Positions 25,127-64,000 of a DNA stretch of 64,000 nt are shown in pieces. A model generated the notes under the pieces. That model did not search any database, was not told the DNA's origin, and worked only from the letters and a program-made list of their open reading frames with translations. The stretch is from Paraspadella gotoi (lineage: Eukaryota; Animalia; Chaetognatha): NCBI GenBank assembly GCA_051294375.1, contig CM119271.1, positions 9,501,308 through 9,565,307 of the forward strand, in the 5' to 3' direction. Within the stretch, counting starts at the first letter, position 1. The number at the start of each line of letters is the position of its first letter. A program made the position numbers and the translations under genes.

Positions 25127-25161
25127 TTCTCTCCAACACGCAAAGGAATCTCGTTGTCTCT

Positions 25162-25186
25162 NNNNNNNNNNNNNNNNNNNNNNNNN
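25162..25186. other. Assembly gap (25 N); others at 7709-7733 and 47383-47407 (25 N), 3575-3584 and 41441-41450 (10 N)
   Basis: Runs of N. Confidence 1.
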
Positions 25187-25645
25187 TTTTCAGTTTAGTG
25201 GTTTTTTTTTTTAGAAAGAAAAAAAAATTCAACGATAACCGCGAAATTAATTTTTTTGAAAAGTTTGTGCAGTTTATATATAAATATTAAATATATATAT
25301 CCGCCCCCTCCTCAGTGCGTTGATATGAGATGACGTAATATTTTTGTTTTAATAGCAGATAATACGATTATGTAATTTGTATACTCGTGAGCTGACGAAA
25401 AAAAAATCGATATTTGGTAAATAAAAAAAAAAGTTAAACAAGTATCCGGATCAGCGCGACAAAGTATAACAAAGTTTTGTTTTTTTTTTTACATTTAAAT
25501 ATTTTTTTCCGTGACGAACATATTATCGAATTATTTGAAACGATAATATATTTTAATGATAATATATATTAATCATTATTACAACAATATGTTCCCTTTT
25601 TCTTTTCCCCCTCCAGCGACATCGTCTCACAGAATCGTGGCCAAG

Positions 25646-34735
<9,090 letters not shown>

Positions 34736-35448
34736 CCTGATCTTTGGGCAAAGTCTCTCTGTCTCCTTCACATACACCCCCCCCCCTTTCCTTACCTCCA
34801 CGGATTCACACTCTTGACCCGATCGCTTAGTCAACTGCAACAACAACAACAACCACAACGACGACGACAAGATTAAGCCGGATCGATCCGGTTTTATAGA
34901 TTCGACGGCCGCTAATTATTTCCTTATATCGATATCGCATCGATTTACGTTATTATTATTATTAATATTATTAGTACTATTTCTAGAAATGTTTCCGGTT
35001 TTTTTTTCTTTTCTTTTCATTATTTTGCTTCATAGCCAAAATTAAAAATAAAATGAGCAATCTGTTGGTGAGTGCCTCGGTAACTTACCGTGTGAATTCG
35101 AAGGGAAAAAAAGCCGTGAAATATTTATTATTAAATAAATAGCGACTTGGAATTTATCGTCTTGAAATTCTTAGACTTAATTTATTTTTCATTAACCATT
35201 TTTTTTCCTCCTCATTGCGCTATTTCTTTTTTGACTCAAGATCGTTTATAATTTCTTTTTCTTTTTTTGTTTTTTTGTTTTTTTTTTTTGCTCAATACAC
35301 AACAACAAAAAAATTAAAACCGTACGATCTGATCCTTCCGTGATCTTTTATTTATGAGTAGAAATCGTTTCACCTTAGAATTATTTTCTTTTTTTTTTTT
35401 GCCCGTTTTATGTTTTATACACCGTCGCCCATAGTTTTTATTAGCTAG

Positions 35449-36886: not shown

Positions 36887-38399
36887 TCACTCTTCGTCTT
36901 CCTCTTCTTCCTCCTTCCACGAGACGCTCCAAGGCTTCGTCTCGTCCACGGGAACCAGCTGAAACAGCAGCGCCATCGTCTTCGGCTCCAGATCCACCGA
37001 CGCCGTCAGCGCGCGACCCCGCAGCTGCGACGCCGCGTTCCTGCTGGCGCCGCAGTCGAAGCGAATTCGGCGACGGGATTTTGCGCCGCGATTTTCGGCC
37101 GCTAACATTACTTTGTAGTCCGAGTTGTAGCTGGGAGAATTAGGGGGGAGAGAATAATAAGTTTTAACATTCGTTGAATCAGGTTGAGAATAGGGCAAGA
37201 TCATACCAAAATAAAATTGGTGCAACCAATATAAAAATTAACCATTCATTTAATAAATAAGCTATCTTGCCCCTGACTTTGGACAGGCTTTGGCGGTTTA
37301 AGGCCTCCATCACTCTTGCAGGGACCTGCTATGTCATTATCTTGTAAGCTTTCTATCAATACTCTCTCACGGTCGAGTAGTAACAAATTGTAACATATTG
37401 TAACAAAAGCAACCTGTTCGTACGCAATTTGGAATTGGGGATTAGAAATAAGACGCTGTACTACTTTTCTCATGCTTAAAACGAACCTTGCATAAATTGG
37501 CAGCTCACAAGTAATATGGTGGACTAAAATCCACCAACCATTTATCAGCGGTCATTGGTGCCGGAGGCAAGTCATTCGCCTCCCAACCCAAAGGTCCAGG
37601 GTTCTAGCCTGGTGGCCGCCTAGCAGTTAAGAGGGACGGGGCGCTACACCCGCCTGTAACATGGTGTTACAGCCTAATCCGAAACTCAGGGACTGCTTAT
37701 ATTGAACGGTTCTATCACTAACACATATCAACAATTACTGTCTCTTCAGTAAATGAATTTAGAAACTAAAGTAGATGCTCATCCCTGGTCTCGAACGCGG
37801 AACTTTAATACTCATAATCCGGCACCCACAAAAATATCATATTTCCTAAAAGCGCTCAATTAAGTCACCCCACTTGCATTCAAACCAGAACCAGTCTCGC
37901 TTCCAACTCGCGCTTAAAATTCACGCGCGAACGCCCAATTACGTTTCACTGTCTCACGTGTGAATGACGACGTCCTTTGCGATTCGACTCTTGGTCGTGA
38001 ATCCTCGTGAAGCGAAGACGGCGGTGATCGCGTGATCGACGAGAGGTGAGAAAGGGTAAGGGCCGCAGGGTCGGAGTGAGGGAGAGCCGTCCTCGGTCCA
38101 CACCTTGAAGGGAAGGGAGGAAGGAACGCGCATGCGTGATGTCGGTTTGAGAAACTATAGACGGGTCATCCTAGTTGAAGGTAGTGAAACTCGAGAGTCA
38201 TTTAAACTTTGGTCATTTTGTCGCGAGGAATGACAAATGACAAATTTCGATGCTTTCATGATTATATTCCCTAATGGACGAGAGTGGTTACTCGCCTGTT
38301 CATAGATTAAGTTGCACCTGTTAATAGTATTTACTTTACAAACTCGTATAACAGGTAAATCGAAGGCAATATTAACAAAAACGAGTTTCCAAGTTTCGC

Positions 38400-44300: not shown

Positions 44301-47300
44301 AGAAGACGATTATGCCCTAGGTGAATATGACAACGAGTGGGCTCTTTTAGGCATTGATGCAATAGATGAATCCAATGCCGTCACGCTTAATGCCGAAAGC
44401 TCTCGCCTAAAGCAAAAGCAAGAAGCCGATTCTATCATATCTGAAGTTATGGAATTCGTCAAGATGAGAAGAAGACCACCAAAATCTTTTCCTGAAAAGT
44501 GGTTCTTAAAGAACTTCAACAGATTCATCATGCTTAAAGGCGCTTTGTACCGCAAAGGCTTCAATAAAGGAATCCATTCTCCTGTGCTGCAAGCTGTATT
44601 ACCCGACAGCCTTGTACAAGAAGTCCTTCAGGATTCTCATGGTTCAATGATGTCTGGACATCCAAGCAATGCCAAGATGCAAGATAAAATCAAACGATAT
44701 GCAATCTGGCCTACTATCGGCCGAGATGTTTCAGAATTTACCAAAACCTGTGCAGTTTGTGACAAATTACGTGAACCACAACCAAAGGTTAAAACGATGT
44801 TACAACCTATAATCGCCGAAAACGTGTTCGACCACGTGATCTGTGATTTGGTGCAACTGCCAGTTGCCCCTGGAAACTTCAAACATGTCCTAGTATTCAA
44901 AGATGTGTTTTCTGGATATATCAAATTATACAAACTCAAAAACAAAAACTCAATTGGGATTGCAAAAGCGTTCGAGAACCTAGTCTGCTTCGCAGGCCCG
45001 CCCAAACGCTTGACATCAGATAATGGTGGCGAGTTTGTCTCCGAGGTGATGGATGCTACTTGCAAGGTCCTCGGCACAAAGAAAAGGACAAGTGTCACAT
45101 ATCGACCACAATCTCAAGGCAATGTCGAGAGACAGAACCGAACTTCATTAAAAGACCTTACCAAACGGCTTCAGCAGTATGGTAAGTCTTGGACAGATCA
45201 TTTGCCTTATGTTGAATGGATATAATACACACCAATGCTAAAAAGAATGAACACCTTCTTCTCTTCTTTGGAAGACCACCTCCTTGCCACAATTATCTAT
45301 TGGTGGCGAAGTTAAAGTTAAACATAGAACTTTAATGATATTCAAAATATGCGAAAGAAGGGAACAAGTTAAGAGAAAGCTTCAAAAGAGAAGAAAAGAA
45401 GACAAAAAAGAAGAAGATATACAATAGGAGAAAGCTAAAGGCTCTCACCTTGAAGTTGGAGATAGAGTGTATGAACGTGTCCCAGACGAAAGGCGTAATA
45501 AGCTTGAGCCAAGATGGCGTGGCCCATTAATCGTCAAAGAAAGATGCACTAGTCCTAAAGGAAGCCCAGGAACCTCCTATGTTTGTGAAGATAACATTGG
45601 AAAGAAAGTGCGTAGAAATCGATGCAAGATAAAATCAAACGATATGCAATCTGGCCTACTATCGCCGAGATGTTTCAGAATTACCAAAACCTGTGCAGTT
45701 TGTGACAAATTACGTGAACCACAACCAAAGGTTAAAACGATGTTGCAACCTATAATCGCCGAAAACCGTGTTCGACCACGTGATCTGTTGATTTGGTGCA
45801 ACTGCCAGTGCCCCTGGAAACTTCAAACATGTCCTGTATTCAAAGATGTGTTTTCTGGATATATCAAATTATACAAACTCAAAAACAAAAACTCAATTGG
45901 GATTGCAAAAAGCGTTCGAGAACCTAGTCTGCTTCGCAGGCCCGCCCAAACGCTTGACATCAGATAATGGTGGCGAGTTTGTCTCCGAGGTGATGGATGC
46001 TACTTGCAAGGTCTCGGCACAAAGAAAAGGACAAGTGTCGCATATCGACCACAACTTCAAGGCAATGTCGAGGACAGAACCGAACTTCATAAAAGATCTT
46101 ACCAAACGTTCTTAACAGTATTGGTAAGTCTTGGAAGATCATTTGCCTTATGTTGAATGGACCTATAATACTACACCAATTGCAAAAAATGATATGAACA
46201 CCTTCTTACTCTTCTTTGGAAGACCACCTCCTTTTGCCACAATTATCTATTGGTGGCGAAGTATAAGTAAACATAGAACTTTAAATGAGTATGTCCAAAA
46301 AATATGCGAAGAAGGCAGAACAAGTTAAGGAAGAAGCATCGTCAAAAGAGAAGAAAAGAAGAAACAAAGAAGAAGAGTATCACAATAGAAAAGCTAAAGG
46401 CTCTCACCTTGAAGTTGGAGAAGAGTGGTATGAACGTAGTCCCAGACGAAAGGCGTAATAAACTGGAGCCAAGATGGCGTGGCCATTAATACGTTTAAAG
46501 AAAGATGCACTAATCCTCAGAGGAAGCCCAGGAACCTCCTATGTTTGTGAAGACTAATTGGAAAGAAAGTGCGTAGAAATCGGGACAAAATTAAAAATTT
46601 GTAATGCGAAATATAATGAGTTATGAAAGTCCCACTTCCAAAGGAAGAACCTAAATTCCCAGTCAGTTGGTTTTGTATTAATGCATCAAACAAGAGCTCA
46701 GATATCTTACCCAGCTGAGCCATCTGCTGAAGGTACAATCCACAGATGAGATGGTCTCAGCTTCAGAGTTCAACTTCAAGCTGCAACAGCGAGTTACGTT
46801 GGACTTCTGCCCGATAAGAAACCTGAACAAGATATCGGATCCCGTTCAGAAAGCCATCCTCCAGAGGATTCTATTATAATACTCTTGGAAGTATTATTAC
46901 TACCCCATGAAGACGGGAAAACGCCGAGCTTCGTTAGAAAACCCAAAGACGTAAGTAGCTCATGCTAAAAGACGCTTCTCTCTACACTACACAAAACTGA
47001 GAGTAGAGATCGCAAAACTAAAAGTACTACAGAAGCTAGCCAAATTATTCGTAACAGTATGACTAAGATTCGAAATGCTTCCGAAACATAATTCCTCGAT
47101 TCTCAGGAAACAATTACTATATATTCCTCTAGAAATCGAACAGGATCATTTGATGAAGTTTTTTCCCCTTCACTGAAAACGATCTGGTGAATGGAGGAGT
47201 TACCACTCCAGAAAACTATCTAACAGAAGTTACCCAATAAGAATGACTCAACCACCCCCTCACCCTTAGTACAAAGTATGTTACAAAGGAAACCTAAATC

Positions 47301-50300
47301 AGGTAGTTCCGAAAGCATTGCAACAAGACAAAGCGGATGAGATCAGATTTCAAACCTAAAAGGGCGGGCCAAAAAAAACTTTNNNNNNNNNNNNNNNNNN
47401 NNNNNNNGTTAACAATTAAAAATTGTTATGCGAAATATAATGAGTTTATGAAAGTACCCACTTCCAAAAGGAAGAACCTAAATTCCCAGTCAGTTGGTTT
47501 TGTATTAATGCATCAAACAAGAGCTCAGATATTCTTACACCAGCTGAGCCATCTGCTGAAGGTACAATCCAATGGCAGAGCTGAGATGCCCTTATAAGGA
47601 ATAGGCCTCTGTTCTGTCTCCGTCTCCCTTCGTTCTCGCTTTCTTCTCTCTCGTCTTCGAAATTCTCAGTCGCTCACGTACATTCCCGGATAAATAACAC
47701 TCTCTCAAAAATATTCTCTCCCTTTACTATTTTTTCTGTCTCTCTCCTCTCTCTCTCTTAGCATCTTGACGTTTAGACCATAAATTGAAATTAAGAAAGG
47801 CGTCGGGATTCTTGTTGTCGTTGTTGTGCGATGACTACAAAAAATGTGGGACTTTTAGAGAGGCCGTTGCCGCGCGTCGGGACAACAAGTAAGGAGCTGA
47901 TTGGGGCGGCCGCGTCTCTGGACGCGGACCGTCCGCCAATTCGGGAGACTTGGGGCGATTTTCTCGACCCCTCCACATGAGCAAAGATATAAAGCACAAC
48001 TCTAGCATCAGAGAGGAACCTTATAATAATTATTTTTAGTCTTCCAATTATTTTTGCCTATATAATTTTGTGAAGTGTCTTTTAACACTTGTAAAGGAAT
48101 AAACTATTTCATGCCTCCTATTTATGTTGAACCAAAACCTTTCTTATTATTATTCACAATTTAAACGAAAGATAAGTAAGGACGAGCAAGAGAGAAAGAA
48201 TTCGATTTAGCGAGCCAGTGGAGTCAGCCTAACCAAAGAAACCCTTTAAAGCAACTTTAGGCGACAGTTGTCCCCTTGCTGCAATTTGATGCTACAAATG
48301 GGGTGGCAGCGGTGGGATAACTGTTGCTGCAAGACGGTTGCTGCAAGCCTGACTCTAGGGCTCGTTGAACTCTCTCTCCGAAGCATTGTGAAGAAGACGG
48401 CGATTTTCAACGCGACGACGATCGAACAATTGGGGTTTGAAGCCCTGAACGACGACTTCTTACAAGTTTCAGCCGCCCTCACTCTTGCGGCGCAAATCGC
48501 CTTCGTCATCGCCGTTATTGTTTTCGCGCACCGACGTCATCGACGAACATGAACGGAACCGAAAACCACCAGGGCGGAAACTCCGTCGTCGACGGATTTC
48601 GCCGCCGCCCCGCACGCCTCCGACTCAATTGCCGCCAGCCACGCGGAGACGATGATGACTCTTCTGGACAAATGATGAGCAGATGATGCAGATGCAACAA
48701 CACAGGTGGCAGTTGCAGCTACGATGCAGGTATTTGTTAAGGAGGAGAACTCCCGCTCGCCTTCATATTCGTTCCGACGGTTCACCCTTTTTCGCTGCCC
48801 GAGCGAGGGGGCCCCCGTCCCAGGTTCGGTTCGACGGGTTTTTTCCGTCGTTCATTCCGCGTCGCCGGCGGCGGACCGTTCTGCCGCCCCGCGCCGTCAT
48901 TTCAGCGGTCAATGGCCCCAGCTCGGCCGATTGTTGGCCCGTTAAGCTCTCACTCCCTCTTTCCGCGTGCTTCCGGATCCGACGAATCCGGCTACGACGA
49001 GGCCGACGCCGTCGGCCACGACGAGATCGACGCGCCCACCACGACGCCCACGACGAGTACGGCCGCTACGACTACGACCACTTCCGTTCGTACACCCATG
49101 CGCGGCGGCAGCCGCCGCCGCAGCCGACGATGGATTGACGACGATGTGGAATCCGGTCGTCGTTTCCTGTGGGGAGTCTCTGGGGCGCTTCACATACGCA
49201 GCGCCGCTCCGACCAACTTTTTTCCAAAGTACGAGGATGGAGATTCCTTGAGGAGCTTCGCTTTCGCCGTTGAGGAGGAGGTGATGACGAAGTGAGATGC
49301 CGCGTAAGGTTTGGCGAGGAAAGTTTGTAGCGCTACTAAAAGGAGTTTCGCGCACCATGGGCTTACCAACTTCATTCAAGCTAGGAAGGCCGCAGGGATG
49401 GACGCCACGGTTACGAGAGCGTGCGCGACCACTCTTCGACAGGTGGAAACTTACTTGATGAAGCAGCTCGTCATGAGCTGGAAAGCGCGGTGAAGAAGAA
49501 GGAAGAAAACTATGCTTATTATGCCGCACGTTCTCCAAAACTTCTCGCCGTCCGCGCCTATGGACGTGAGTATTGATAAACTCACAAAATCGAAAACCAA
49601 GGTGCAGGAAGTCTTCATGAGGATTTGAGAGGACCTCTGGGACACAAAGTAAGGGAGATGTTGCCTGAGACTTTGGTCGCGACTATCTCGTTCGCGCGAT
49701 CGTATGAGGACCGCAAGGATACTCGAAGAATCCAAAGCCGTCGTCCACGCCATTGGCTCATCCGGAAGCAGCGCGCCAGCAGCGGCCGCCTCCAAGAGCG
49801 CTGCAGATCGTGTTGCATGCGGCGTCACCAGGGGCATAGAAAGGGATGATTGCTGGAAAATTCACCAAGAAGCGCCCCAAAAATGGAGGACCGCGCTTCA
49901 AGAGATCAACCGCCAACCAAGTAAGGACAGGAAGAAAACCTGGGGAAGGGGGGCAGAAAGAAGGGGACCACGCTCTCCCCCGCCACGTCTCAACCTTCAC
50001 CCTCGTCCCCCGGCCTCATCTTAAACTGAGGCATGGCCGAGCTCGACATCTCCGACGATTCCGACGGGAATGGATCTGCTTCAGGGAAATAGCTTACACA
50101 GTCTCAAGGTTAACCGGAAGTCCAGCGCGCGCCGAGTCATCTACCGTTCTCGCCGCGGCGCCACCGCTTCGCAGCGGGATCTACGAGCACCTGATGACAA
50201 CCGATTCCATTCCTAAGCAGACTGACGAGGACTCGACTCGACAGGGGAAGCGGCCGCCAATTTCCGTCGACGACGCCGTTTCATCGATAGGGAGCGCCCT

Positions 50301-53300
50301 TCAATATCGAGGACGACTATTTACCGGTTGAGATTTTAAATATCCCTGGACCATTTATTCCTGTACAAATTGGCGAATGAAATTTTAAGAGACCATGATC
50401 GATACTGGCAGCGGATCGCTAAATTTACTTTCTATGCACTATTACGGAACCAATTGCATTATTGAATATACCGTTGCGAAGCGAGCAGTATAAGGTCATG
50501 GGAATTGGTGGGGTGATTTAGGGCTGCTAGGCTCTGGTAATATTCGGTTGCAAAATAAATAACACCCCGAGGAGGCATTGTCTTTCACATATACAGGGAG
50601 AAAGGCATTTGTATTTGGGTTTAAAAGGGAATGCAAAGATTTTGACATTATTAGATTACTAAAAAATCAAACGGTACATGTAACGGCATATGGTTAAAAT
50701 TATCGGTGAGAAACGCGGAAAGGGGTAACCGAGTTCGAGTTGCCAGGTAACCACTAAACAAGACTGTATAATCTAAAATTGCATGAGACTGTCGTTATTC
50801 CCGCTATTCGCAAATTAATAACTTTCGTTGATGTCGCCGATGATTCGCCGCCGAGGAAACGCTCGAAATTAGATTGCCAATTCGAGTGTCGCCGCTATGG
50901 AATCATTATTCCGCGTTATGTTTTGTCTCGCCCAATGAAAACCATTCCTGTGTTAAAAAATTAAAAATTGGTTTTGTTCGCCGATGAAACTGTATACGAG
51001 GAAGTTACGAAATGCGGCGTTGGCCAAAACCTTGTATTGTTGCGAAGTGAATGATGATGATGATCCAAGCTGGTTGGATCGATATGAAGGCATTGATGTT
51101 GAAGGTGAAGAGTCGCCTGATGGCATCCTATTGTAATTGATTGATTGATTTTGTCTCATCTGGATGATGAAAAGAAAAATAAGTTTGAGCAGTATTAAGA
51201 CGAAAAATGATCGAGTATTAGCGCGGACAATGGACTTGGCCGCACGTCATGGTTGGATGTAAAAATTGCAATTGCAAAGAAGTGTGACAACGGTAATCGA
51301 TCGCCGCGTCAGTTCCGCTTTAGCCAGCAGAAGGCCTGCGGAAGAGAAGCGCGTGAGCTAAGAACATGGACTCATTCACGCGTTTGTAGTCAAATCTTGC
51401 TACAGAGGCTGGCCGGTATATGTAAGAAACGTGATGAAACATGGCGTCTGTTGCACGGGAATGCACGGCTTCGCCATTGATTACCGGAAACTAAATCCTG
51501 TCTACGGTTCCAGGACGGCCAATGCCTCCGAGAATGGGAGATGTGTTTGACAAATATTTCTGCATGCGTTGGTTTTTTCGAAAATTGATTTAAATTATGG
51601 GTTACATGAAGATTCCAATGTCAACCAGAGTCAGCTCCATTGACATGTTTTGAGATTCCAAAACGCCGGTCAGTACATGTGGACCGTTCTCCCTTCGGCT
51701 TCAAAAGTGGCCGGCCGTATTCACTGAGCTGATGAACTGCCATTGCAATGCGTCTTCAACCTTCTCCACCTGCTCGCCTACCTGACGACATCATTTGTCC
51801 GATCACGAATTCGACGAAACACGTGGTACATTTGGAAGAGGTCTTAACTAGGCTAGAAGTTGCTGCGATTGAAGCCAAGGCTCAAGGTTTAGTCCTGCAA
51901 AAATGAAAATTGAATTATTGGCGTCACGTGATAAACGAGAATGGCATCAAAACCGGATAACCATGAAAACTCAGAGTCTGTCGAAATGGCCAAGCCGGAC
52001 TACGGTAAAAGAGGTTCAGTCGTTCGTTGCTTTTGCAATTTTATCGTAGATTGTTCCGAATTTCTCTGGCATCGCAAAAACCCTCTATGAGCCTTTCCAA
52101 AAAGGACCGGAAGTTCCATTGGAGTGGACGCTTGTCAAAAAAGCATTCGAAGAGCTCAAGAATATAATTGTTCGGGCATCTCGTTCTGGCGTGCCCTGAT
52201 TTTTAATTAAAACTTTCCACCTCGCGACTGACTGGGAGTGCTCTGAAACTCCAGTTACAATCCTGTCTCACAGTCGACGATGCCACAGGTAAGTTAAGGC
52301 CCATCCTTTATGGAAGTAAGGTCCACCACCAGGACCTGATGTGTCGGCTACTACGAGGAAATCGCCTGATCCTCATATTCTAGAGGACGTTTCAAAGTCT
52401 CACACGGCTATGCTAGCGACACATAATTACTTTACTGGCTAAACGCGACTTTATTCTCTATTCAGACAACTTTGCTCTTTTCAAATCTTTGTCTAGTCGC
52501 CGCCGCAAGCGTTCGTCATAAGAACGCCTAGGTAGTTAGCCCAGTGGAGACTTCAAGTCAAGCACTTACCAGGTAAGCAAAAATATTGGGCCTGATTTGT
52601 TGCAGTCGGATTGACTTCGCGCAGAAAGAAACAATTTCCTGTGCCAGACAGGACTGGTCAGATTGTCGGAAGTGTCGCTCAGTAGTAATAGTTGCTCCTG
52701 TTGCAACACGCGCAATGACGCAGCTGCCCAGCTGCAAATCCACATCCGATACTGATCCTGCGATCGGGGGGACGCCTTGATCCAACAGGTCTGCTGAGAG
52801 GAAGTGGAGGCCGTTACAAGAGAGCGCATGGGGACTTTAAGTAAGCTCAAGGCTTGGATAGAGACCGGTTCAACGCCCCGACAGAAAAGAGGCGCGTAAG
52901 GGAAAAGTCCCGCCACTAAGGTCGTTACTCGCAAGTTTCGACCAATTCAAAGTAAAGTAATGACGTAATCGTTCGCAGTTTGGACGGGACAAGGACGGAC
53001 AAGGTAAGAATTTGGCCGTGGTACCTGAGAGTGCAGTTCCGGAATTACTGCGGCTTGCGCACGACAACCAAGTCATTCGGGGGCAGAATAAAACGGTTGA
53101 ATTTCTCCGACGTTCAGATATTACGTTTTCGCGTTGGCCGCCGTCGTCGAAAGGACTGATTCGTTCGTGCGGAATCTGTCAGAGGAAGAAAGCAAACAAA
53201 ACCGTTAAGCCCCGTTGCAACAGATTATTGCAGTTATTTCAATGAAAGAGTTGCATTTGATATTAAAGGCCCATTAAGAGAGACTAACATAAAAAATTCC

Positions 53301-56300
53301 GCTATTATTATTGATTATCACTGATTATTTCAGATCGATTGACTATTCTCGCTGGTTTAAAAGGAAGTTCACAGCAGAAGAAGTACTTACTGCATTGTAT
53401 GAGCATTATATTGATATTTCGGAGTTCCGTTCGCGTCATAGTGATGCGTCACCGACGTTTCACGGCGCCGCCGCGAAAGATTTCTATCATACTCCTCGGC
53501 ATCCACAAAGACGAAGACGGCTCCACTCCATCCAATGGGAGACGATTGGTTGAAAGAACATTCGCCTCCATTTCAGGTTTAGGTAACTGCCATGTTGAGG
53601 AACCGGAATGCTGATGGTGCACCGATTGGACGGCGCTGAATGGGATACACGCCTGAAGAAGGCACAATTGGCAGTTAACGCGGACGCCAAATCTTCACCT
53701 CTTTTTTCTCCTTTCAAAATTCTCACCGGAAGTGAAATGTTGTTCCGATGACGCTTTTTATCCGGTGGAAAAACGCGCGAGAAAAAACTATTGCAGCACC
53801 GTTAGAGGGTTGCAAGACAGGCAATCCGAGAATGTCCACGCCGTAATGGAACTATATATGGGTCATGAGCTGGCGATACAAAAAAGATATTATGATTCTT
53901 CTGTTCTAAAATTCCCTGAGTTTAATATTGGCTGACAAAGTTCTTTATCGAAAAGTTGCTGATAAGCCAGCCCATGAAGCTAAAGCATTGCTCTCCTAAA
54001 ATATTTTGATTCCACTTTTTGAAATTACTAAAAAATTGTCTGATGTTAAATTACGTCATTCGAGACGTAAATGTCCGGAAAGGAACGGGTACAACACGCA
54101 AATCATTTTTGCGCCCAGTCGTAGAGAAAGCCATCACCATGGAAACGGAATTCAACAAGAGGAACCGTTTCGACGACAAAGACCGGAAGGAATTCTGGAT
54201 CGGGACGACGACAGTTGTTGATCATCATTTGAGTGGGAGGCTAGCCCCCCGGGGGGGAAGGGGGTTTTCCGCTAAAAAGACGTTCTACTCGATCGAGGAA
54301 CTTGCCCTCGAAACTAACTGACTTTTATTTGGATGATTCAAGTCGAAGGTTTTGTAAATATGATTTAATATACGCATTAATATTATGACATTATAACAGT
54401 GTTTAATCAATCACAAATAATTTTCTACGTCTGTTTGTTCATTACTACATTTTATCATTTATTCATTATTTTCGTCTCTTGGATTAATACGATTAATTGT
54501 TAGCGCTACGTCTGAGTTCGCAACGAGCAACCAGGATCAGGTGGAACAAAAGAGGCATCGTCCGAGATCTTTCCGTTCCACCGAAGTAGTGGTTCAGCCG
54601 CCTTCGCTGAGTGTCTGGAAGGAGAATGAAAATTATGGTTAGTTCTCTGTCTGTGTAAATCCATTGGAATCAAAGGGATCGATCTACCAAGATGGTTCGG
54701 CTCAGTGGTTGTTTTACTTTTTTATTATTATTCGCTGATTTATTAAAGTCTCCAATTTAAGCTCAAATGTTGGAGTTGAGCGAAATCATTGGATGAGAGG
54801 AAAAAAAATGGAAGAATGATTGTAGTGAATGAATGGGTTCTGATCGATTTCTATCTACGACGAGCTTGAGTTTCTTCCACTTCTGTAGAAAGGAATAATT
54901 TTGCAATTCCTTCTGCTAAGTATTAGGCTCAGTATGTTCCGCGTATTATAGTTATATGTTCCTACGACATTGTTTTAACAAAATTGACACTGACCCATTA
55001 CCTTATGTTAATCCATGGAGTCCCCCTCCTCGAAAGTCGATGTCTTTCGACCCAAATCATACCACGTCGTCGTCATCATCATCATCATCAGCGTCATCCC
55101 GGGCGGCCGCCGGAGAAGATTGGGCCGAGCTGGCGCCCGGCAGAGGACGCCCCCCTCCGAACCAGATCGCTCTGATTGCGGAGAAGAGAAGCCCGAGGCG
55201 ATGATGATGGCCGGGGAGGAAATTTCCTGAGGAGATGACGCGCACGGGGAGAGAGCCGGAACAGGACTGCTCGATCCGGAGATTCCCGGCGCTGACGCCG
55301 ACCCGGAACGGGATTCTCTCCACGACTGGAGAGTCGGGTTTCCGGTCATTCTCTGATCCGGCCGGTGGGAGGATTTTGCCTGGTGATGACATCGTATCGA
55401 GACGATGCATCAAGAGGAGGATCGGGACGCCGCTCTTCGTCGGCGGATCCTCGCGCCGCTGCAACAGGAGAGGAGACCGCCCTGTCCGAGGGAATCCTTC
55501 GGACGTTGGCAAAACACTTGGCGATTTTGCAAGGGTGGAGAGGAGCCATGGCGAGTTCGGTTGAGCGGTGGGAAAAATGCCCCAGACCGAGGCCGCTTTT
55601 GACACAGATGAGTCCTTCCGGAAGTGTAGGGCCGCGGACTGGGAGAGGTAAGACGCAGTGGCACCAGCTGCGCCACGTTGAGACGCCCCCAGCCCGCGTT
55701 AAAATTCACTTCCGTGGAGAACCGGTGCCCGAGGCACCCGCCAGATAGCTGCACACGAGGCGTGCAGCTGTTGGGCCGTGATGACCTCGGAACAACGCGG
55801 CAGCGTTGAAGAACAAGTTTGGGCGAGCCTAAAATGAATAAGTAAAATTATAAACTAAAATTAATTACCATGATCAGTCAAAATCTGCAAATTAATATGC
55901 CCATAATATTGCCAAATAATATTGATTATTACGTTTTAAGTCCTTGTACGCCCTTTGTTATTTCATGTTGTTGAAATAAGTCCAGAGAACTTTATTTAGT
56001 TTTTCCGTTCTATCGCAGTCAGAATAGAACAACGTTTTTCGTGATTACACGATGGGAATTATTATTATGATTTTATTTCGAATACAATGTACATTTAGCC
56101 TTGTATACATTATGTAACGGAAACGAATTCTCGTCAATGATATAAGCAAATTAGGCAATCGACGAAATTCATTTCTGGCAGTGAGATGAATAAATGTTTC
56201 ATTCTTTTGAAATTATTGTTACAAATCATTGTTTAACAGTGTATTTCGTTGCGTCTCCCCTTTTCGTTTGTTATTCAACAACCGATCATAAGTCAAGGAA

Positions 56301-59300
56301 TTATTATTATTTTTTCTATATCCTTCCGGAACCAGTACACATTAATTTATCATAAATCAGGAATTGTGATTTATTTTTCTATATTCCTTCAGGAACCAGT
56401 AGAATTAATTTGATCATACAATATTTACTTTCTTTTTGAAAACTTCTCCGATGATTCAATTCTAAATACGGTTTCCCTAAACTTAGAGTTCGAGGGGCTC
56501 TAGTGGAAACAATGGTCATTTTGTTTACGTTCGAAAAAAAGGTACATTTTTCGAATGAAAATGGTTTATTGATTTACGATCATATTCCTATTATTCCGCA
56601 GTTTCCTTGTAATTACTGGTAACTCGTTCTTATGTGTTACAATGAACTTACTTGATTAAATCCATGATTACCCCAGTGAAGATGGGTAATATCAAAACGA
56701 TTGTCGGGGGAAGAGAATAGAATTAAACGTTTTCGAAAAAATTTAGCGGATGAAAACTATTTGCTCGGACGCGTTGGGAGTTTGCCACAGAAAGTGAAGA
56801 ATTATCGAGAGGTTTAGGGACCGGCGGTAAACGATTATACATTCTAGGCAAGGAAATCTGACTCGAAAGAAGCGCAGGCAGGCATTTATCACCACTAGTG
56901 TAACGGCCAGGCTCGGGTTGAACACGAGAAAGTACGAAGCGTAGACTAAAGTCATAACAAGCGCGGGATAGGGGAGACTAAGGAAGATGAGGACATTTCT
57001 TTTTCTTTGAGGTCGAGTTTAATAAGGATAGGCCTCTGTCTCGTATCTCCGTACCTTCCCCTCGTCTTTCTCGCCTTTCTTCTCTCTCGTCTTCGAAATT
57101 CTTCAGTCGCTCACGTACATCCCGGATTATAACCACTCTTCTCTAAAAATATCTCTCCCTTTTACTATTTTCTGTCTCTCTCTCTCTCTTCCTCTTAGCC
57201 ATCTGACGTTTAAGACCATAAAATTTGAAATTAAGAAATGGCGTCGGATCTTGTTGTCGTTGTTGTTGTCGATTGACGTACAAAAAATGTGGACTTTGAG
57301 AGAGGCGTTGGCCGCGCCAGTCGACAACATGTAAGGAGCTGATTGGGCGACGGCCCGTCTCTGACGCGACCGTCCGCCAATCCAGGGGAACTTGGGCGAT
57401 TCTCGACCCCCTCCACATTGAGCAAAGATATAAAAGCAACAACTCTGAAGCATCAGAGAGAACCTGTATAATAATTATTTTTTAGTCTCCATAATTTTTG
57501 CCTCCATAATAATTTTTGAAGTGTTCTTTAACACATGTAAAGAATAAAACTATTTACTGCCATCCTATTTTATGTTATTCTCTCTCTTACTCCTTTGCTA
57601 GCAAGTACTCCTAAAAACAAGGAGTAATGTGAATTTAGTTAAAATAGTTTTATAGATATTCCACAATCATAGACATAGTCTCAGTTTTTAGAATGAAACA
57701 AAGTAAACACGATCGTAGTATCAAATTTTAAGATTGGATCCAGTTACTACATTTACTACAGTTACTACAATTCAAGCTCAAAACCAAGCTAATTCGCGAA
57801 TCCTTTGACAACAACTACATTGGCCATGTAAGCAAAAGAAGAGAAGATAATTTCACCCATGTATGTATGATTGGTATGCATGACATTACTTTCCTCTCCC
57901 CCTTCTACTTCTCTTTGTTAAATTATGAGTTATTTGTAATTGAATATAGAATCATTTAAGTGAATTAGAATAAATAAAGTTCTATAAATTCTTCTTTTAG
58001 TTATTTCTTGTTTTGGCTTATAAACCAATGCTTTATAGCTTGTTAGGAATTTGCTGTTAGCGATTCTTTTAACAAAATCTTGAGCTACTCAATTTGACTA
58101 AATCAATTTTATATCTATTCTATCTAGTTACAGTAAGTGACTACAATATGGGCAAACGAAAGACAATTACGCAGTGTTTGTATTCACTAGCACCGAACAA
58201 TCGCGAAGAGACGATCCCGCCGGAAGATGATCTCCCGAGATTCCCGCTCGTTCTCCCTCCTCAGGACGATTTACCGAGATTCCCTCCCGTCCTGCCTCCT
58301 CAGATATCGAGTGAGACGAGCCACTCCGATTCGAACATTCCGACCGCTCTCCCATCTGCTCCCACACCTGTTCTTCCATCTGTACCAGATGTGGAAGTAA
58401 GAGAGATTAAACTGCCAGGAGATGTCAACCCAGACACTCTCTATGTGGACATTAAAGATATTCCACCATTCAAGAACAATGCTCCACCGTCAAAAACCAT
58501 AGACAAAGCGCGGTACCTGGAGTATGAGTTCGCCGAAAAGTTAAAGTATCTCAAACTTGAGGAAATGTCGGCGTCGAAAATTATTCATGTTCGCAACACC
58601 CGCGACGACAGAATGGCAGGTGCGCGCTTCGCCTCGCTCCTTGCCAAGTCTGATCGCGATATACTGGTTGGTTTTGACACAGAGGGCAGTTCTGCGACAG
58701 TGCAATTGTCAGCAAAGGTTGGAACTGATGAAGTAAACGTCGTGTATCAACTGAAATCGTCAGTTGCCGAATCGTGTCTTAGTGAGGGAGTCCCCGACAA
58801 TCTGTTCAACATTCTACTGCATGAGAGAATCATCTTTGCAGGCAAGAACGTCAGAGAAGATCTCCTAGAATTGTTTGAGACCTTGTCGATCTCACTCTTC
58901 AAAGCGATAAGGCTAAGATACCTTGAGGTAACGGACCTCTATGGATTTTGTCAGAGCCTTGCTCAAGGACCTCGGGAGGTACGCCGTTTCGTCCAGTCGG
59001 GTCAGTGGGTCCGCGAATTTCAAGTTTCGCTGGCATTCTTTTTCAACTTTGCATTTCGAGATCGATTCTTAGACAAGCGAAGTTTCCATCGAGACCATAC
59101 GTCGGATTTTGCTGAAGAAAGATCCCCGCTGTCCCCACAACATCTCATTTATGCAGCGTTGGATTCCCGCGCTTCGAGGGATGCGGTCGTGGCACTTCTT
59201 GGGATGCTTGGTCTCCGCCCTACTGCATTCGCAAGAGAAGTCGGCGACGACTCCTTTCCGATCAACAACCGTATTCTCGATATCGCTAAGGCCTTCGAGA

Positions 59301-61811
59301 ACGACAGCCCTCGAAACAAACGCGAAGAAACGGGCATTGCAGCGCTCAAACTGTGCCAGGTATTCTTCAAGACGCGGGTAGCCGACGCAGAAAAGGCAGA
59401 GATTGTGCGACGTCTTAGAAAACAGATCGCCGTGATAAAGCTAAAGGAAATACGAACGAAAACCAAAATCGACATCGTTTTCATTGAGGACGATCGCGTA
59501 GACCAGCTTGTCATCACACCTTTCCGCTCCGCGTCCACCATAGAGACAATAGAGGAACCATGCGAGTCCTCTCCGCCGGCCAAGGTCAGAAAGTTTTTAC
59601 CTTCAGCCCCTATAGATGCCTCTTCGGTGTCAACTCCAGAGACTTCGCAGGTCCCTCCTTCGGCCGAAGTGGAATGTGCAACAGATGCGACAATCGCCGG
59701 TCCCACCAAGACTAGACCTGGTGGTAAAAGTACATCGTCCCCGACCTTCGCGGTCTTGTCGCGCGCTACGCGTGAGGCAAAACCGCCCGAAGACTCTGCC
59801 ATTTCTTCTGCCAGAACGTTGACAACCTTGCAGATTGCGGATTTTCAGCGATATCTCAAAAAGAAACGAGAGTTGACGGTGACCAAAACGATAGAAGAAT
59901 GGGTCAAGATTCTTTCTTATATGCCTAAGAGAAAACAGAATAATCGAAGGAAAGCATATCTCCTTGCGCGTACTATGTTCGACTTCTTCCCAACACGTCG
60001 TCTTAACGATTTTGTTACTGCGGTTCTCAAGGAGAAGGCCTTGGGATCAAGTTGCCTTCATTCGCTCGTCCAACTAAAGTATTTTTCATGTTCCTCGCTA
60101 GTCCTATTGGATTACTTCCTCGATAGCGACAGCCGTACTCATACGTTGAAATCGGCTGCGCAAGAGTTCGACCAGGCAGAGATCTCGTCAATAGTTGGAT
60201 TTATTTCTCGCTTCTACAGAAGGAAAGACCTGATAGTGGAAAAACTGCGTTCAACTGGCTTTTACGCGAACATGCACGACATCGACGACTTCAAGGAAAG
60301 GTTTTCTAACTATCGCGTCGGTCGATTCATCAGAACATGTTCAGAGGTTGCCAAGTTACCGCTGTCTCGTCATTATCTCGACATAATCTGCAAGTCGCGC
60401 ACCGATATTCTGGTGGAAGCGTTTCTTCGTGGCGAGATCGAAGAGTTTGACATGTATTTTTCCTGCAGAGCTATTGCAGCCGGAGAGAACCGACTGTTTT
60501 TAACTAGTGTGATGCGCGTGGCTGAGTTCAACTCGCTGCTCGCTTCATTCCTCTTACGGCTTCGTGGAGATCCGGAAAGGTCCTTCCCTCCAGCAGAGCA
60601 CGACGACTTTTCGCCGTCATGCAGAGAACCTTATAATAAAGTTCTCCACGATTTACCCTCGTCATTGAGAGGAAATAGAACAGATGGCATAATAATTAAA
60701 GACATAAACGAGCTCGATAAATTCAAAAGAGCATTCTCCAAATCTGAAGATTACGCTATCGCGTATCATCGACCCTTGCCAGGATTGGAGAAAACAGAAA
60801 TTGATTTCCTATCAATTCTTTGCGACAGAGAAGTCTTTCACTTCGCCCCCGGCAAGAACCGAGCTGTCACCGAGGCTATGATTAGCACACTGAAGCCCTC
60901 GCAGTCCCGCCTCTTCACCTTCAAAAAGGTTCCTTTGTTCGACTTTTTCCGTCGCGAATTTTCGTGGGTCCCCTCTAATTGGGTCGACGCAGAAACCGTC
61001 TGCAAGGAGCGTGGCTGGGAGGCAACCATCAATTTAATTGCGAACAAAATCACGGGAGACGCCTATTGTCCGCGTGGACTCCACTTCCATGGAAGTTCGA
61101 GGCCATCTTCGAATGCCCTCTCCACCGCTCGATTACGACGCTGCTCGTATTCAAGTTTTGCGTTCGCTTCGCTCGTTAAGGACGCGTATTGGTCGGGTCG
61201 ACCAATTTAGAAAGGAGGAAGGATGTTGGAGACAAATTCGTGCGGACATCGAAGGACTCGAGATGAAGAACAATTTGCTACGAACAATTAAGGAACTGTT
61301 CTTCAATAAAAATATAAATAATGATTGCTTTTATTTACCTTATTTGTTATTGTTTACATTTCAGATAAGTGAGTATCGTGCTTTATATGTATAAATGATA
61401 ATGTCAGAATAGTAGAATACACCGTTCTTGGTCAGCGTCTCCCTGTCATATTGTGTGCTTCTCATTCTCATAGATCCATACGATAAGACTATTGCTCTCT
61501 GTCGACTGCGCCGCCCGCTCAGACTTAGTTTGGAGGACGACGTGGGAGACCCCGATGCGATCTCAATGCCACCTGACGTGAGCCACCTTCGCCGCTGGCG
61601 AATCCCATAAATCCGCTTCCAAAGGAGGAGAGGAGGAGGAGGAGGAGGAAGAGGAGGGAGAGTAGGAAGAAGAAGGGTAATATTAAGAACAGTAGGAGTA
61701 AATGAGAGGAAGAAAAAGAGGAAGAAGAAACAGGAAAAATACGAAGAGTAAGGGTAAAATGAAAGAGAGGGGAACGAGAGAAAAAAGAGAGAGAAAGAAA
61801 TGAAGGAGAGG

Positions 61812-61861
<50 letters not shown>

Positions 61862-63727
61862 AAAGAAAGAAAGAAAAAGAAAAAAGAAAAGAGACAGGGA
61901 AATAAACAATGATCATTTTAAAAAGAAAGAAAGAATAAAAGAAAAAAAGAAAAGAAAAGAAATGACAAACGATAAAAAAGCTAAAAACAAGCCTAGTTTG
62001 TTGCGTTTTGAAACGAAACGTAACAAAAACAACAACCCCCCCACCACCCCTACAACCCACCTCCCCGCTTCACCTATAATCCAACTTTCCATCCCGATTG
62101 GCGTCCGCCCCGGCGAACAACCTCTCCACTTTCAGCCTTCGTCATCTTCTCCCCTCGAGTCGTCAAGAGTTCTCGTCAACTCGTCCAGGGTGACGAGCCG
62201 TCCCGGTTGACGTCGACGCGTTGGAGGCGCGGAGGAGATCCTCTCTCGTTGGCGGGCGGTTCCTGGCGAGGATGTCGCAGACTTCCTTGAAGGTCATGGA
62301 GGAGCGGGCGCGTCAGAGGGCCAGTATCTTTGGATGTTGATTTGGAAATTGATATAAAGTATAAAACTAACTGACAAGTGGAGTATCGATTGAGAATTTG
62401 GAATGCGTTAATAAATCTCAATGATGAGCTAGGGTAGTCTTGTATACTGGACACTAATGATTAAGTCTGCCTCATTCCCAAGATTTGATTGAAAGATGTA
62501 TGAAATTGGTACAAACCCAAATATAAAATTATCCATTCATTTAATAAATAAGCTATCTTGCCCTGACTTTTGGACAGTGCTTTGGTGGTTTAATGGCCCT
62601 CCATCACTCTTACAAGATAATGACACAGCAGGTCCCTGCAAGCTTTCAATCAAGACTCTCTCACAGTCTCGTTATTCACTCCCAGAGTGCCTGGCTTCCT
62701 ATCAATGAAGTGGTATAATATTCAAAGAATGTTTCAATTGTATGAAAGATGTTATATTACAGTCATGTGCAAAAAAATCGCGCCACTTTATTTCAGACTT
62801 TAAAAATCACCCTATATACTTGATTTTTAAAAAAGATTTTAAATGTGAATTAAAATTTATAAAAAGATGATAAATTTGGCATAAACTTTATTTAAATCTG
62901 GCTATCCATTTAGGAGCAGTGATTTCTAGTACTTTACTGCAAAGCGAAACGTGAAAAAATCTGATAGATTTAAGGCTAATCTTTTTTTCTTTGATATTTT
63001 TTATTCTTTGTAGTATATAAAAAATTTAAAAAAAATTATATTAGACATCCGAAGGGATTGCTAGATTGCCCCAGATTCCTAAATAATAATCTTAAGGTTA
63101 TTGAAACATACGAGGAAAGACAGATCCACATCTGAAGCTTTTAAATAAGTCTATTTTCCCCATTTGGTTTTAAAACATTCAATTTTAAAAAATCATATCT
63201 CAAAAACCACATGACCAATTGTAATAAAATTTTGACACAGCGATTCCTTTTTTAAAAAGAATTATTTTTCTTACATAATTTTTAAAAATGTTTTTATAGA
63301 ACGTCTGGATTTTAAAGTCATAAATAACGTGAGTATACATATATCGTAACCTAACATATCTTGTCCAAATCGCTTGAACCAAAAATTCCTAAATCTATCG
63401 TCCTCAATCAAAATGAAACTGAGACACCGGGACCAACGAAGACGCTTCTTCTCATCCCAATCGTGCATCAACTCCATAACTCCTCTTTTGTTCCAATCTC
63501 CCTCACTTCTGTATCGTCCTGCTGCTGGGATTCCTCCCCGCCTGCTGCAGCACCAACATCAGCTCTTTGCTGTCCTGCAGCTCGTCGTCCAGGGACGCCG
63601 CGACGCCGAGGTAAGCGGCGCGCGATTCGCGAACGAACTCTGTCTCGCACGGCGCCGAGAGTGACGCCGAGGCGTCGGAGACTCGACGCGACGCCGCCGA
63701 ATCGGCGCGAGAGGCGCGGGACGTCAT
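36887..63727 (-). CDS. EFCAB7: EF-hand calcium-binding domain-containing protein 7 orthologue (spliced, >=9 exons)
   Basis: GT-AG bounded exons in collinear order: 63727-63507 (ESRAAYLGVAASLDDELQDSKELMLVLQQAGRNPSSRTIQK); 62327-62074 (YW..CDIL..VDVNRDG..RGEKMTKAE..ADANRDGKLDY, EF-hand pair, with indel errors); partial 41440-41304 (rest in N gap); 40885-40712 (KDWASTKSRGVVFVDEDG); 39870-39647; 39283-39118 (TSGCRL..DIFHLSDLDGNGTLS); 38781-38505 (RTSGE..DLWVTLAAMGFNKALLLDEAVPF); 38103-37958; 37130-36887 (stop). Motifs match recalled vertebrate EFCAB7 (RAAYL, AGRNPS, TGCRL, DLDGNG, DLWVTL..MGYNKAL). Intron phases are consistent at the junctions that could be read. Confidence 0.92.
37514..37748 (+). 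mobile_element. tRNA-derived SINE-like repeat
   Basis: 72-nt tRNA-like head at 37548-37619 (acceptor GCGGTCA/TGGCCGC, T-arm CCAGG-GTTCTAG-CCTGG, Gly-like TCGCCTCCCA with a broken anticodon stem); homologous to 13170-13410. Confidence 0.75.
40220..40549 (+). mobile_element. Solo-LTR-like element (330 bp) in an EFCAB7 intron
   Basis: Canonical TGTTG...CAACA ends; internal motifs shared with the LTR at 61224-61623; no clear target-site duplication. Confidence 0.6.
40918..41300. repeat. (ATCA)n degenerate microsatellite filling an EFCAB7 intron (also ~39340-39600)
   Basis: Runs of TCAATCAATCAA. Confidence 0.9.
41453..41938 (+). CDS. gag: Gag C-terminal part of element A, Arg/Ser/Asp-rich (partial, 5' end in gap)
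   Basis: Open frame missing from the ORF track because it has no start: KREDRDRARGSRDYSPRSRDSS..RDSRSRDNYDRDRNRR..KKNPPPSETSSEN*, directly before the protease frame. Confidence 0.7.
   Translation, partial: KREDRDRARGSRDYSPRSRDSSVSSNSSSRDNRRGRDNRRSWGRSGYRDSSSYDSRDSRSRDNYDRDRNRRYSRFGDRDRNRPRDSRRSDRQDYRKGNRDIRNNDRDRRNRDRYRVANTSDEDSGENQSEEEAVRKFLSDRRKAKKAAKKNPPPSETSSEN
41953..43092 (+). CDS. pol: Pol of element A: aspartic protease and linker (frameshifted pieces)
   Basis: DTG catalytic motif and IILGWDF motif (41953-42447); continuation 42532-43092 leads into the RT N-terminus. Confidence 0.85.
43861..45225 (+). CDS. pol: Pol of element A: RNase H and integrase
   Basis: RNase H (43861-44226); integrase HGSMMSGH..CAVC, VICDLV, TSDNGGEF, QSQGNVERQNR (44263-45225). 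Confidence 0.93.
44676..46580 (+). repeat. Tandem direct duplication (~945 bp unit) of the integrase region
   Basis: The sequence starting GATGCAAGATAAAATCAAACG at 44676 restarts at 45621; the second copy is more frameshifted. Confidence 0.9.
47594..48296 (+). repeat. 5' LTR of element B (appears 5'-truncated)
   Basis: Matches 57021-57576; has CCAAT, TATAAA (~47988) and AATAAA (~48098); ends ..GCTACA two bases before the PBS. Confidence 0.75.
48299..48318 (+). promoter_or_regulatory. Primer-binding site complementary to tRNA-Leu 3' end
   Basis: TGGGGTGGCAGCGGTGGGAT equals TGGTGGCAGCGGTGGGAT, the complement of tRNA-Leu ..ATCCCACCGCTGCCACCA, with two extra G. Confidence 0.8.
54956..55835 (+). 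pseudogene. Frameshifted accessory ORF in the post-integrase position of element B, function unknown
   Basis: GC-rich coding-like island between pol and the 3' UTR (MSFDPNHTTSSSS..GEDWAELAPGRGRPPPNQ..); no recognisable domain. Confidence 0.4.
57021..57576 (+). repeat. 3' LTR portion of element B (U5 missing; may begin upstream near 56717)
   Basis: Direct repeat of 47594-48128. Similarity stops about 28 nt after AATAAA. A purine tract GGGGGAAGAGAA at ~56706-56717 is a PPT candidate. Confidence 0.75.
58094..61210 (+). CDS. Retrotransposon-associated ORF3: DEDDy 3'-5' exonuclease (WRN-exo/MUT-7/EXD/RNase D-like) + helical region + probable degenerate second exonuclease-like domain
   Basis: Intronless 1038-codon ORF; first ATG at 58148. 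ExoI VGFDTE (D195, E197), ExoII GKNVREDL (D256), ExoIII SDF..SPLSPQHLIYAALDS (Y353, D357), numbered from 58094. A likely 1-nt frameshift near 61120 would give a C-terminus ..LHRSITTLLVFKFCVRFAR, stop at 61179. Confidence 0.85.
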   Translation: MTKSILYLFYLVTVSDYNMGKRKTITQCLYSLAPNNREETIPPEDDLPRFPLVLPPQDDLPRFPPVLPPQISSETSHSDSNIPTALPSAPTPVLPSVPDVEVREIKLPGDVNPDTLYVDIKDIPPFKNNAPPSKTIDKARYLEYEFAEKLKYLKLEEMSASKIIHVRNTRDDRMAGARFASLLAKSDRDILVGFDTEGSSATVQLSAKVGTDEVNVVYQLKSSVAESCLSEGVPDNLFNILLHERIIFAGKNVREDLLELFETLSISLFKAIRLRYLEVTDLYGFCQSLAQGPREVRRFVQSGQWVREFQVSLAFFFNFAFRDRFLDKRSFHRDHTSDFAEERSPLSPQHLIYAALDSRASRDAVVALLGMLGLRPTAFAREVGDDSFPINNRILDIAKAFENDSPRNKREETGIAALKLCQVFFKTRVADAEKAEIVRRLRKQIAVIKLKEIRTKTKIDIVFIEDDRVDQLVITPFRSASTIETIEEPCESSPPAKVRKFLPSAPIDASSVSTPETSQVPPSAEVECATDATIAGPTKTRPGGKSTSSPTFAVLSRATREAKPPEDSAISSARTLTTLQIADFQRYLKKKRELTVTKTIEEWVKILSYMPKRKQNNRRKAYLLARTMFDFFPTRRLNDFVTAVLKEKALGSSCLHSLVQLKYFSCSSLVLLDYFLDSDSRTHTLKSAAQEFDQAEISSIVGFISRFYRRKDLIVEKLRSTGFYANMHDIDDFKERFSNYRVGRFIRTCSEVAKLPLSRHYLDIICKSRTDILVEAFLRGEIEEFDMYFSCRAIAAGENRLFLTSVMRVAEFNSLLASFLLRLRGDPERSFPPAEHDDFSPSCREPYNKVLHDLPSSLRGNRTDGIIIKDINELDKFKRAFSKSEDYAIAYHRPLPGLEKTEIDFLSILCDREVFHFAPGKNRAVTEAMISTLKPSQSRLFTFKKVPLFDFFRREFSWVPSNWVDAETVCKERGWEATINLIANKITGDAYCPRGLHFHGSSRPSSNALSTARLRRCSYSSFAFASLVKDAYWSGRPI
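61209..61223 (+). promoter_or_regulatory. Polypurine tract (plus-strand primer)
   Basis: AGAAAGGAGGAAGGA directly abutting the LTR-initial TG. Confidence 0.75.
61224..61623 (+). mobile_element. 3' LTR (~400 bp) of the exonuclease-carrying retrotransposon
   Basis: Starts TGTTGGA immediately after a purine tract; ends TTCCAAA (TCCAACA expected, one base off); patchy similarity to the LTR-like element at 40220-40549. Confidence 0.7.
62498..62710 (+). repeat. Unclassified dispersed repeat; other copies at 37215-37375 (+), 3183-3277 (-), fragment ~35686-35710
   Basis: Shared blocks CATTCATTTAATAAATAAGCTATCTTGCCC, CCTCCATCACTCTT and TCTCACAGTCT among the copies. Confidence 0.75.
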
Positions 63728-64000
63728 GGAGTGGGCGTGGCGACCGACTTGCGGCTTTGGTGTGGCTTCGTTCGATTGATTGAGTTTTGTTTGTATTATT
63801 TACTTTTATTATTATTTAGACGGTTGAAACAATGATAGTTTGAAAAATCTCGTCATTATTATTTCAAATTAAATTTTACGCATATATACTTATTTGCGTT
63901 GTAAAACCATAATTTCGATCGAAATATTGTTTAGTTCAGCAATTTTTAAATATTTAGTTTAACACTTTTCGTTCCAGTAATATATTTCAAATTTACTGCC

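Follow-up and report, generated by a model that had tools for sequence, protein, structure and literature searches.

A gene in the genome of the chaetognath Paraspadella gotoi appears to combine, in a single protein, a working exonuclease and a second exonuclease fold that has lost its active site. It lies in a 64,000-nucleotide stretch of DNA (GenBank assembly GCA_051294375.1, contig CM119271.1, positions 9,501,308 to 9,565,307 of the forward strand), called the window below, whose microsatellites, Ty3/Gypsy-type pol fragments, and large internal duplications mark it as eukaryotic. The gene is an intronless open reading frame (ORF) at 58148..61179 on the plus strand and encodes about 1010 amino acids, or 1020 when read to 61210 as assembled; ORF 58148–61210(+) is the sole long ORF of the window. 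Sequence and structure models suggest a three-domain chain (Table 1): a predicted active DEDDy 3′–5′ exonuclease near the N terminus (N-exo) and, after a disordered linker, a helical domain and a DEDDy-fold domain without catalytic acids (the C domain). The last two occupy the final 45% of the ORF. In our overall reading, which has about an even chance of being right, this is an ORF3-type protein of a transposable element, in which a noncatalytic module targets the active N-exo.

A predicted degenerate exonuclease fold with a conserved Cys/His set

Single-sequence Pfam and Protein Data Bank (PDB) searches with the window protein gave no match. Relatives were collected by a HMMER scan of residues 568–1020 against 1.84 billion representatives with a cutoff of E ≤ 0.001, which yielded 84 sequences, 47 of them at E ≤ 1e-10, with identities of 20–33%.

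The models indicate that the C domain almost certainly adopts the DEDDy 3′–5′ exonuclease fold (RNase H-like/DnaQ, RNase D/WRN-type). A first-pass annotation of the window, made from the sequence alone, had proposed a DEDD fold here, and structure prediction and structure comparison bore this out: such a fold was indeed predicted. Modeled together, the helical and C domains reached a predicted template modeling score (pTM) of 0.87, which suggests a single unit; this model stops before the last helix and the fourth Cys/His residue. Structure matches of the C domain placed DEDDy far above DEDDh. The C domain of one relative, P0020, gave a weak match to Pfam PF01612 (E 0.019), and the ESM Atlas value of 0.84 for the C domain is a lead only. 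A BFVD structure search returned no match at E ≤ 0.001 and single exonuclease domains only.

The active site of this fold is largely gone. Catalytic sites were assigned by motif position, and the counts cover relatives other than the window protein, with n dropping where fragments miss a site. At the Exo I Asp site, Asp is present in 21 of 66 relatives, and the window protein has Ala. The Exo I Glu site holds an acid in 0 of 66 and His in 43 of 66, and no column of the Exo II region retains an acid. At Exo III, 4 of 60 relatives keep the Asp, which is most commonly replaced by Arg (25/60), and the Tyr site is His in 60 of 60. All 54 relatives that cover every site have at most two of the four catalytic acids, in agreement with the first-pass claim that these residues are missing. 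Judged from the alignment, the C domain very probably carries out no DEDD catalysis; its likely role would be binding, to RNA or to proteins of the host.

The dead module is conserved at a median identity of 26% across 57 relatives, and the domain is under strong constraint, with C825, H834, C974, and the Exo III His all kept. These residues are nearly invariant (65/66, 65/66, 63/63, and 60/60, respectively) and follow the pattern C-x8-H...C-x~18-H. All four occur together in 50 of the 52 relatives that cover them; the two exceptions align poorly in that loop. Cys2His2 sets are typical of structural zinc, and C825, H834, C974, and the His that follows the frame break described below probably form a structural Cys2His2 zinc site.

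The same residues could instead mark a domain with switched chemistry, in which the Cys/His set, H874, and E765/D768 form a new catalytic site, along the lines of the "active site switch" proposed for Maelstrom (MAEL) in the consulted part of PMC2628886. The His residues at the Exo III Tyr and Exo I Glu sites would suit such a switch. So would Arg976, conserved in 58 of 63 relatives, and an E-x-x-D motif conserved in the helical domain (E765 in 57/62, D768 in 60/62, and an acid at position 768 in 62/62). However, H874 is missing from a third of relatives and the Exo I Asp from two thirds, the Exo III Asp site is most often Arg, and a Cys2His2 set is what structural zinc generally uses. Thus, we consider switched chemistry very improbable, and the noncatalytic reading of the C domain is the one we carry forward.

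A predicted active exonuclease at the N terminus

N-exo is predicted to be a working DEDDy 3′–5′ exonuclease. Its D-x-E, D, and Y-x3-D motifs are intact in eight of the eight sequences examined, one of which has Glu at Exo II. The domain has an ESM Atlas score of 0.95, and 25 of its 30 matches fall within the PF01612 set. PF01612 matches to N-exo of P0045 and P0056 were weak and under cutoff.

A profile comparison found no likeness between N-exo and the C domain (hhalign score 14.8; shuffled mean 12.8, maximum 19.7). A recent duplication is therefore unsupported, and internal duplication of N-exo was rejected as the origin of the C domain. The same result, together with the long and variable low-complexity linker between the domains, argues against a dead domain that arose by internal duplication and now activates N-exo allosterically or pairs with it as an intramolecular pseudo-dimer. 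Such an arrangement would fit with the general behavior of several DEDD nucleases, which act as dimers, and with P0056, where both exonuclease folds are joined without a helical domain, but it seems improbable to us. A complex prediction that paired N-exo with the P0018 C module in the presence of Zn scored 0.00 with alignments unused and is not evidence either way.

Comparison of the helical domain with Nibbler

All peptides quoted in the first-pass annotation are present in the ORF, and the Ser/Pro/Thr linker that it described is 42% Ser/Pro/Thr. It had further likened the layout to that of MUT-7/Nibbler. This comparison held in one respect, a helical domain directly before a DEDDy fold, and failed in two: the EXO domain in that position is dead, and there is no MUT7-C domain, since the frame stops at most 20 residues past the Exo III helix. 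Most Nibbler/MUT-7/EXD3 members carry a C-terminal MUT7-C domain, although Nibbler does not.

Structure comparison also returned Nibbler. Among 48,161 chains compared with the helical part alone, the Nibbler N-terminal domain, which the first-pass reader had named beforehand, ranked fourth with 153 aligned residues. In the comparison of the whole model, Nibbler EXO was one of five tied best matches and had the longest alignment of the five (155 residues). The spacing is colinear, with model positions 1/175/265 corresponding to chain positions 154/315/427 in Aedes numbering. When a full-length profile was searched against the PDB, the DEDDy chains at E < 10 were limited to the two of Nibbler EXO, at E 0.68 and 2.1, both matched in N-exo. 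Foldseek with the helical domain alone gave no match at E ≤ 0.001, and the Nibbler N-terminal domain was absent among the matches listed; PDB sequence and profile searches gave no match under E 0.1, and that domain was unlisted there as well.

These likenesses favor a derivation of the helical and dead domains from Nibbler/MUT-7 (N-terminal domain plus EXO), which would have been captured and inactivated and would now serve as a dominant-negative decoy of host PIWI-interacting RNA (piRNA) and microRNA trimming. We regard this as rather unlikely. An extended version is comparably doubtful: a widespread and unannotated LTR (long terminal repeat) retrotransposon clade would have captured Nibbler/MUT-7, killed its active site, added a zinc site, and fused the result behind an active exonuclease, creating a suppressor that over-trims or destroys Argonaute/PIWI-bound small RNAs at the Nibbler docking site.

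Relatives and ancestry of the fusion

The family is almost without annotation. Among 30 relatives looked up, 26 were nameless and in ENA only, 4 were JGI "hypothetical protein" entries, and none was in NCBI or UniRef. In Pfam the family rose above no cutoff, with 36 of the 84 relatives scanned once and 71 in another scan, and 10 proteins each gave no meaningful match in NCBIfam and PHROG.

The order N-exo, helical domain, C domain is found in 13 of 13 proteins of at least 1000 amino acids (8 clusters, near-copies counted), including P0103, which was outside the N-exo training set. A tree was built from the 43 rows that cover at least 300 of 395 columns; the window protein sits on a long branch of it. 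Members bearing N-exo are spread across the whole tree, with 7 changes needed for 8 rows. Because the bearers are so scattered, N-exo was probably already fused to the helical and C domains in the ancestor of the family, and contig fragmentation probably accounts for most short hits.

Two features of the relatives' architecture were also seen. P0056 (and P0101) represents a 565-amino-acid relative, on at least three contigs, in which an active-type exonuclease is fused directly to a partial dead domain. In addition, most relatives in the range P0002–P0085 end in an Arg/Ser/Asp/Glu-rich tail resembling an RS domain; the window copy ends before such a tail.

A likely LTR-retrotransposon context

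The gene probably belongs to a family of LTR retrotransposons, as their accessory ORF3. A purine run just past the stop codon abuts a TG, and such a run is unique in 57577–61630, where 0.005 are expected (1000 mononucleotide shuffles). At 61223–61224, contigs whose upstream DNA is unrelated converge in runs X1 (5 contigs), X7 (3+4), and X9 (3), and X1 depth there climbs from ~34 to ~600, revealing a high-copy repeat with a sharp left border. By LTR anatomy, the purine tract, the TG, and the repeat border correspond to a polypurine tract and the start of a 3′ LTR, and thus the ORF stands in the ORF3 position. A diverged colinear paralogue of the gene shares flank patches and 61187–61251 with it and runs into the same repeat, as do partial copies of the gene.

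The partial copies, about two extra, start at 60764 (60764–61239) with other upstream DNA and show a small deletion at 60827. They are likely internally deleted derivatives that retain the 3′ end. The repeat family that begins at 61224 has no other copy in the window, and its high depth and many junctions point to numerous solo or 5′ LTR copies in other parts of the genome. On the other side of the gene, a pyrimidine-rich stretch ending in AG at 58110–58135, just 5′ of the ATG, could provide the splice acceptor of an env-like subgenomic transcript. The runs listed as containing the gene include no identified RNA run; X9 may be one. Further upstream, 57680–58000 is covered in X1, whereas X2, which has the gene body, lacks cover at 57868–58001; the segment is possibly polymorphic, although a contig hole alone is no proof.

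Several observations weigh against an ORF3 of this architecture. Blastn found no second copy of 61224–61625 in the window and hence no 5′ LTR, so the carrier element may be 5′-truncated or interrupted. There is no clean inverted terminal match near 61620, in a window that is error-prone in repeats, and terminal inverted or direct repeats between 57500–58150 and 61170–62520, as well as a Gypsy LTR remainder downstream, are likewise absent. No gag-pol could be linked to the gene. Searches with narrow patterns found no related loci among metagenome contigs or those of viral and prokaryotic genomes. The relatives' "intronless" ORFs could stem from transcript assemblies. P0056 lacks the helical domain, and P0003, P0020, P0024, and P0034 lack N-exo on contigs of 4.6–10.7 kb, so at times the modules may occur separately. 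Finally, the gene's depth of 34, compared with 18 for one flanking contig (X1), fits a single diploid locus, and the gene is present in 8 DNA runs from 5 samples at 77–90% of words, as expected of a host gene.

The last two findings, the missing gag-pol, and the fact that five of nine examined read variants in the ORF are silent all suit a host or domesticated intronless gene of a small-RNA pathway, belonging to a fast-evolving, expanded family, with the LTR-like repeat either inserted there by chance or left over from retroposition. Such a gene would not be expected to end only 30 bases before a purine tract and TG, nor to have a diverged paralogue and partial copies entering the same repeat, and the looked-up relatives are neither in NCBI/UniRef nor informatively named. 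We judge a host gene to be unlikely. Under the ORF3 reading, which we prefer, this particular copy may be what is left of an element, either stranded or domesticated.

The frame break

In the window assembly, the reading frame breaks shortly before its end. The last conserved helix lies in a different frame, 61123–61179, and X read-through adds 26 bits. The first-pass annotation had called for a check of this frameshift near 61120; in the contigs of four of four public runs, the window indel was not reproduced, and the contigs differ from the window by a small indel at full contig depth, with the limits that contigs lose rare variants and that the source sample may be among the runs. Some three copies are collapsed in this part of the assembly (X1 depth 104 vs. 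34), and the break lies just within its border. Assembly gaps number 226 in 3.5 kb of Gypsy pol and 0 in 2841 bases of gene body. Since the break is in a collapsed multicopy part, where such errors abound, it is likely an assembly error. A pseudogenizing frameshift at ~61120 was considered and is unlikely: X1 depth is 104.4, with 105 expected for a shared path with one known bubble and 102.5 with a second bubble, a small margin.

Table 1. Features of the gene, its likely carrier, and the adjacent element (window coordinates)
Feature	Position	Strand	Remarks
Pro/Ser/Thr-rich N-terminal region	58148..58507	+	Residues 1–120; 34% S/P/T
N-terminal DEDDy 3′–5′ exonuclease (predicted)	58565..59203	+	D177, E179, D238, Y335, D339 present
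Low-complexity Ser/Pro/Thr linker	59513..59842	+	Residues 456–565; length varies among relatives
All-helical, solenoid-like domain (predicted)	59849..60590	+	Residues 568–814; net charge about +13
DEDDy-fold pseudo-exonuclease (predicted)	60608..61179	+	Catalytic acids lost; C825, H834, C974, and post-break His near-invariant
Frame break	61118..61123	+	Window assembly only; not seen in contigs of 4/4 public runs
Polypurine tract	61209..61223	+	15/15 purines, directly before TG; 30 bases past stop at 61179
Likely 3′ LTR of carrier	61224..61623	+	Starts TGTTGG; AATAAA at 61305; right end approximate
Gypsy-type element	47594..57576	+	LTR pair 47594–48128 / 57022–57576, 83.6% direct repeat

Proposed role

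By analogy with known proteins, we lean toward a targeting role for the helical and dead module. The Nibbler N-terminal domain is described, in the consulted part of PMC11347159, as a HEAT-like RNA-binding scaffold that is proposed to recruit Nibbler to Argonaute (AGO)-bound RNA, and PXL and Exuperantia appear in the consulted part of PMC13659232 as DEDD pseudo-nucleases that bind nucleic acid. The helical and dead domains would form one rigid, noncatalytic, likely zinc-stabilized unit that attaches to the 3′ ends of RNA or to a protein complex with small RNAs, as the Nibbler N-terminal domain is reported to do. The active N-exo, on its flexible tether, would then be brought to the bound RNA and trim it. 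The likeliest purpose would be protection of the element's transcripts against silencing by small RNAs, or else processing of the ends of its own RNA. If the small-RNA pathway is indeed the target, the family would represent a transposon-encoded counter-defense against silencing by piRNAs or small interfering RNAs.

Neighboring elements

The Gypsy-type element that precedes the gene was tried as its carrier and rejected. It has its own LTR pair, outside of which the gene lies, and its depth is 7–15 times that of the gene (in X1, 241–284 inside and 659–686 in the LTR, compared with 34 for the gene, or about 7 times); therefore, it does not carry the gene. Its integrase is marked by an H2C2 match at 52964–53242. 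The 3′ LTR copy ends at 57576, short of the apparent end of the 5′ copy near ~48207, where there is a motif that we take to be primer-binding-site-like, and a GC-rich stretch at 55000–55800 after pol is unexplained.

A second Gypsy-type pol at 41872–47593 contains protease, RNase H, and integrase, with a duplicated integrase part (44676–45634 / 45621–46595) and an N gap at 47383. The depth of 41872–46600 tracks that of the nuclease-gene paralogue at ratios of 0.79–0.97 in four runs, which is a lead only; this pol may be the autonomous partner.

Elsewhere, inverted duplications at 10538–19498 / 23782–32736 (about 9 kb) and 7748–10188 / 32945–35352 (2.4 kb) have ~90% identity and nested shorter repeats; they are either real or a long-read assembly artifact. 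A very high-copy short interspersed repeat lies at 62500–62750 (X1 summed depth >100,000) and also at 37211–37374 and 3183–3337. Rfam gave a single match in 46000–64000, by chance.

Comparison with known systems

It is useful to compare this family with known exonucleases of transposable elements. ORF3s of the DEDDy type are already known in LTR elements and Terminons, from the consulted parts of PMC5408684, PMC6431247, and PMC6338049. In bdelloid rotifers, LTR elements such as Juno and Vesta carry them downstream of pol, with function unproven (PMC5408684, in part), and these elements and Athena/Terminon share with our gene an RNase D-like DEDDy domain with intact residues, encoded by its own accessory ORF at the place of ORF3 (PMC5408684 and PMC6431247, in part). 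The rotifer ORF3s, compared by description only, have one active DEDDy domain (DEED motif), once fused to a GDSL esterase; the portions of these sources consulted mention neither a helical domain nor a second, dead exonuclease with the Cys/His set. Dada DNA transposons of Laccaria and Ectocarpus also encode a DEDDy exonuclease domain, but there the active domain lies inside a DDE transposase, which our gene lacks (PMC3706591, in part).

Nibbler, MUT-7, and EXD3 (structures 7jw2, 7jw3, and 7jw6; PMC11347159, in part) likewise have a helical domain right before a DEDDy fold. Here, in contrast, the EXO domain after the helical domain is dead, an additional, predicted active exonuclease stands at the front, the helical domain is shorter, MUT7-C is absent, and identity is 7–10%. 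In MAEL and other DEDD pseudo-nucleases, as probably in the C domain, an exonuclease fold has been retained to bind nucleic acid or protein, and MAEL further resembles the C domain in the replacement of acids by conserved Cys/His. The C domain is not a Maelstrom domain, which has a DnaQ-H (DEDDh) fold with EHHCHC; here the pattern is C-x8-H...C-x~18-H on a DEDDy-type fold. Egalitarian, by comparison, retains its DEDDy residues (10.1101/2025.08.03.668247, in part).

The titles and abstract openings found in our literature search, to which subscription papers and supplements did not belong, mention neither a tandem active/dead DEDDy protein nor a Nibbler captured by a retroelement. Single DEDDy ORF3s, transposase DEDDy domains, and DEDD pseudo-nucleases are thus not new. 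What appears to be new is the combination of an active-type DEDDy domain, a helical solenoid, and a Cys/His pseudo-DEDDy domain in one chain, which is absent from family libraries and from the literature found. To exonuclease ORF3s of undemonstrated function (PMC5408684, in part), the family adds a conserved, apparently noncatalytic module that resembles the RNA- and Argonaute-facing part of Nibbler. Even if small-RNA pathways are not its target, the family, unannotated and with at least 84 divergent members, pairs a predicted active DEDDy domain with a dead one in the same protein.
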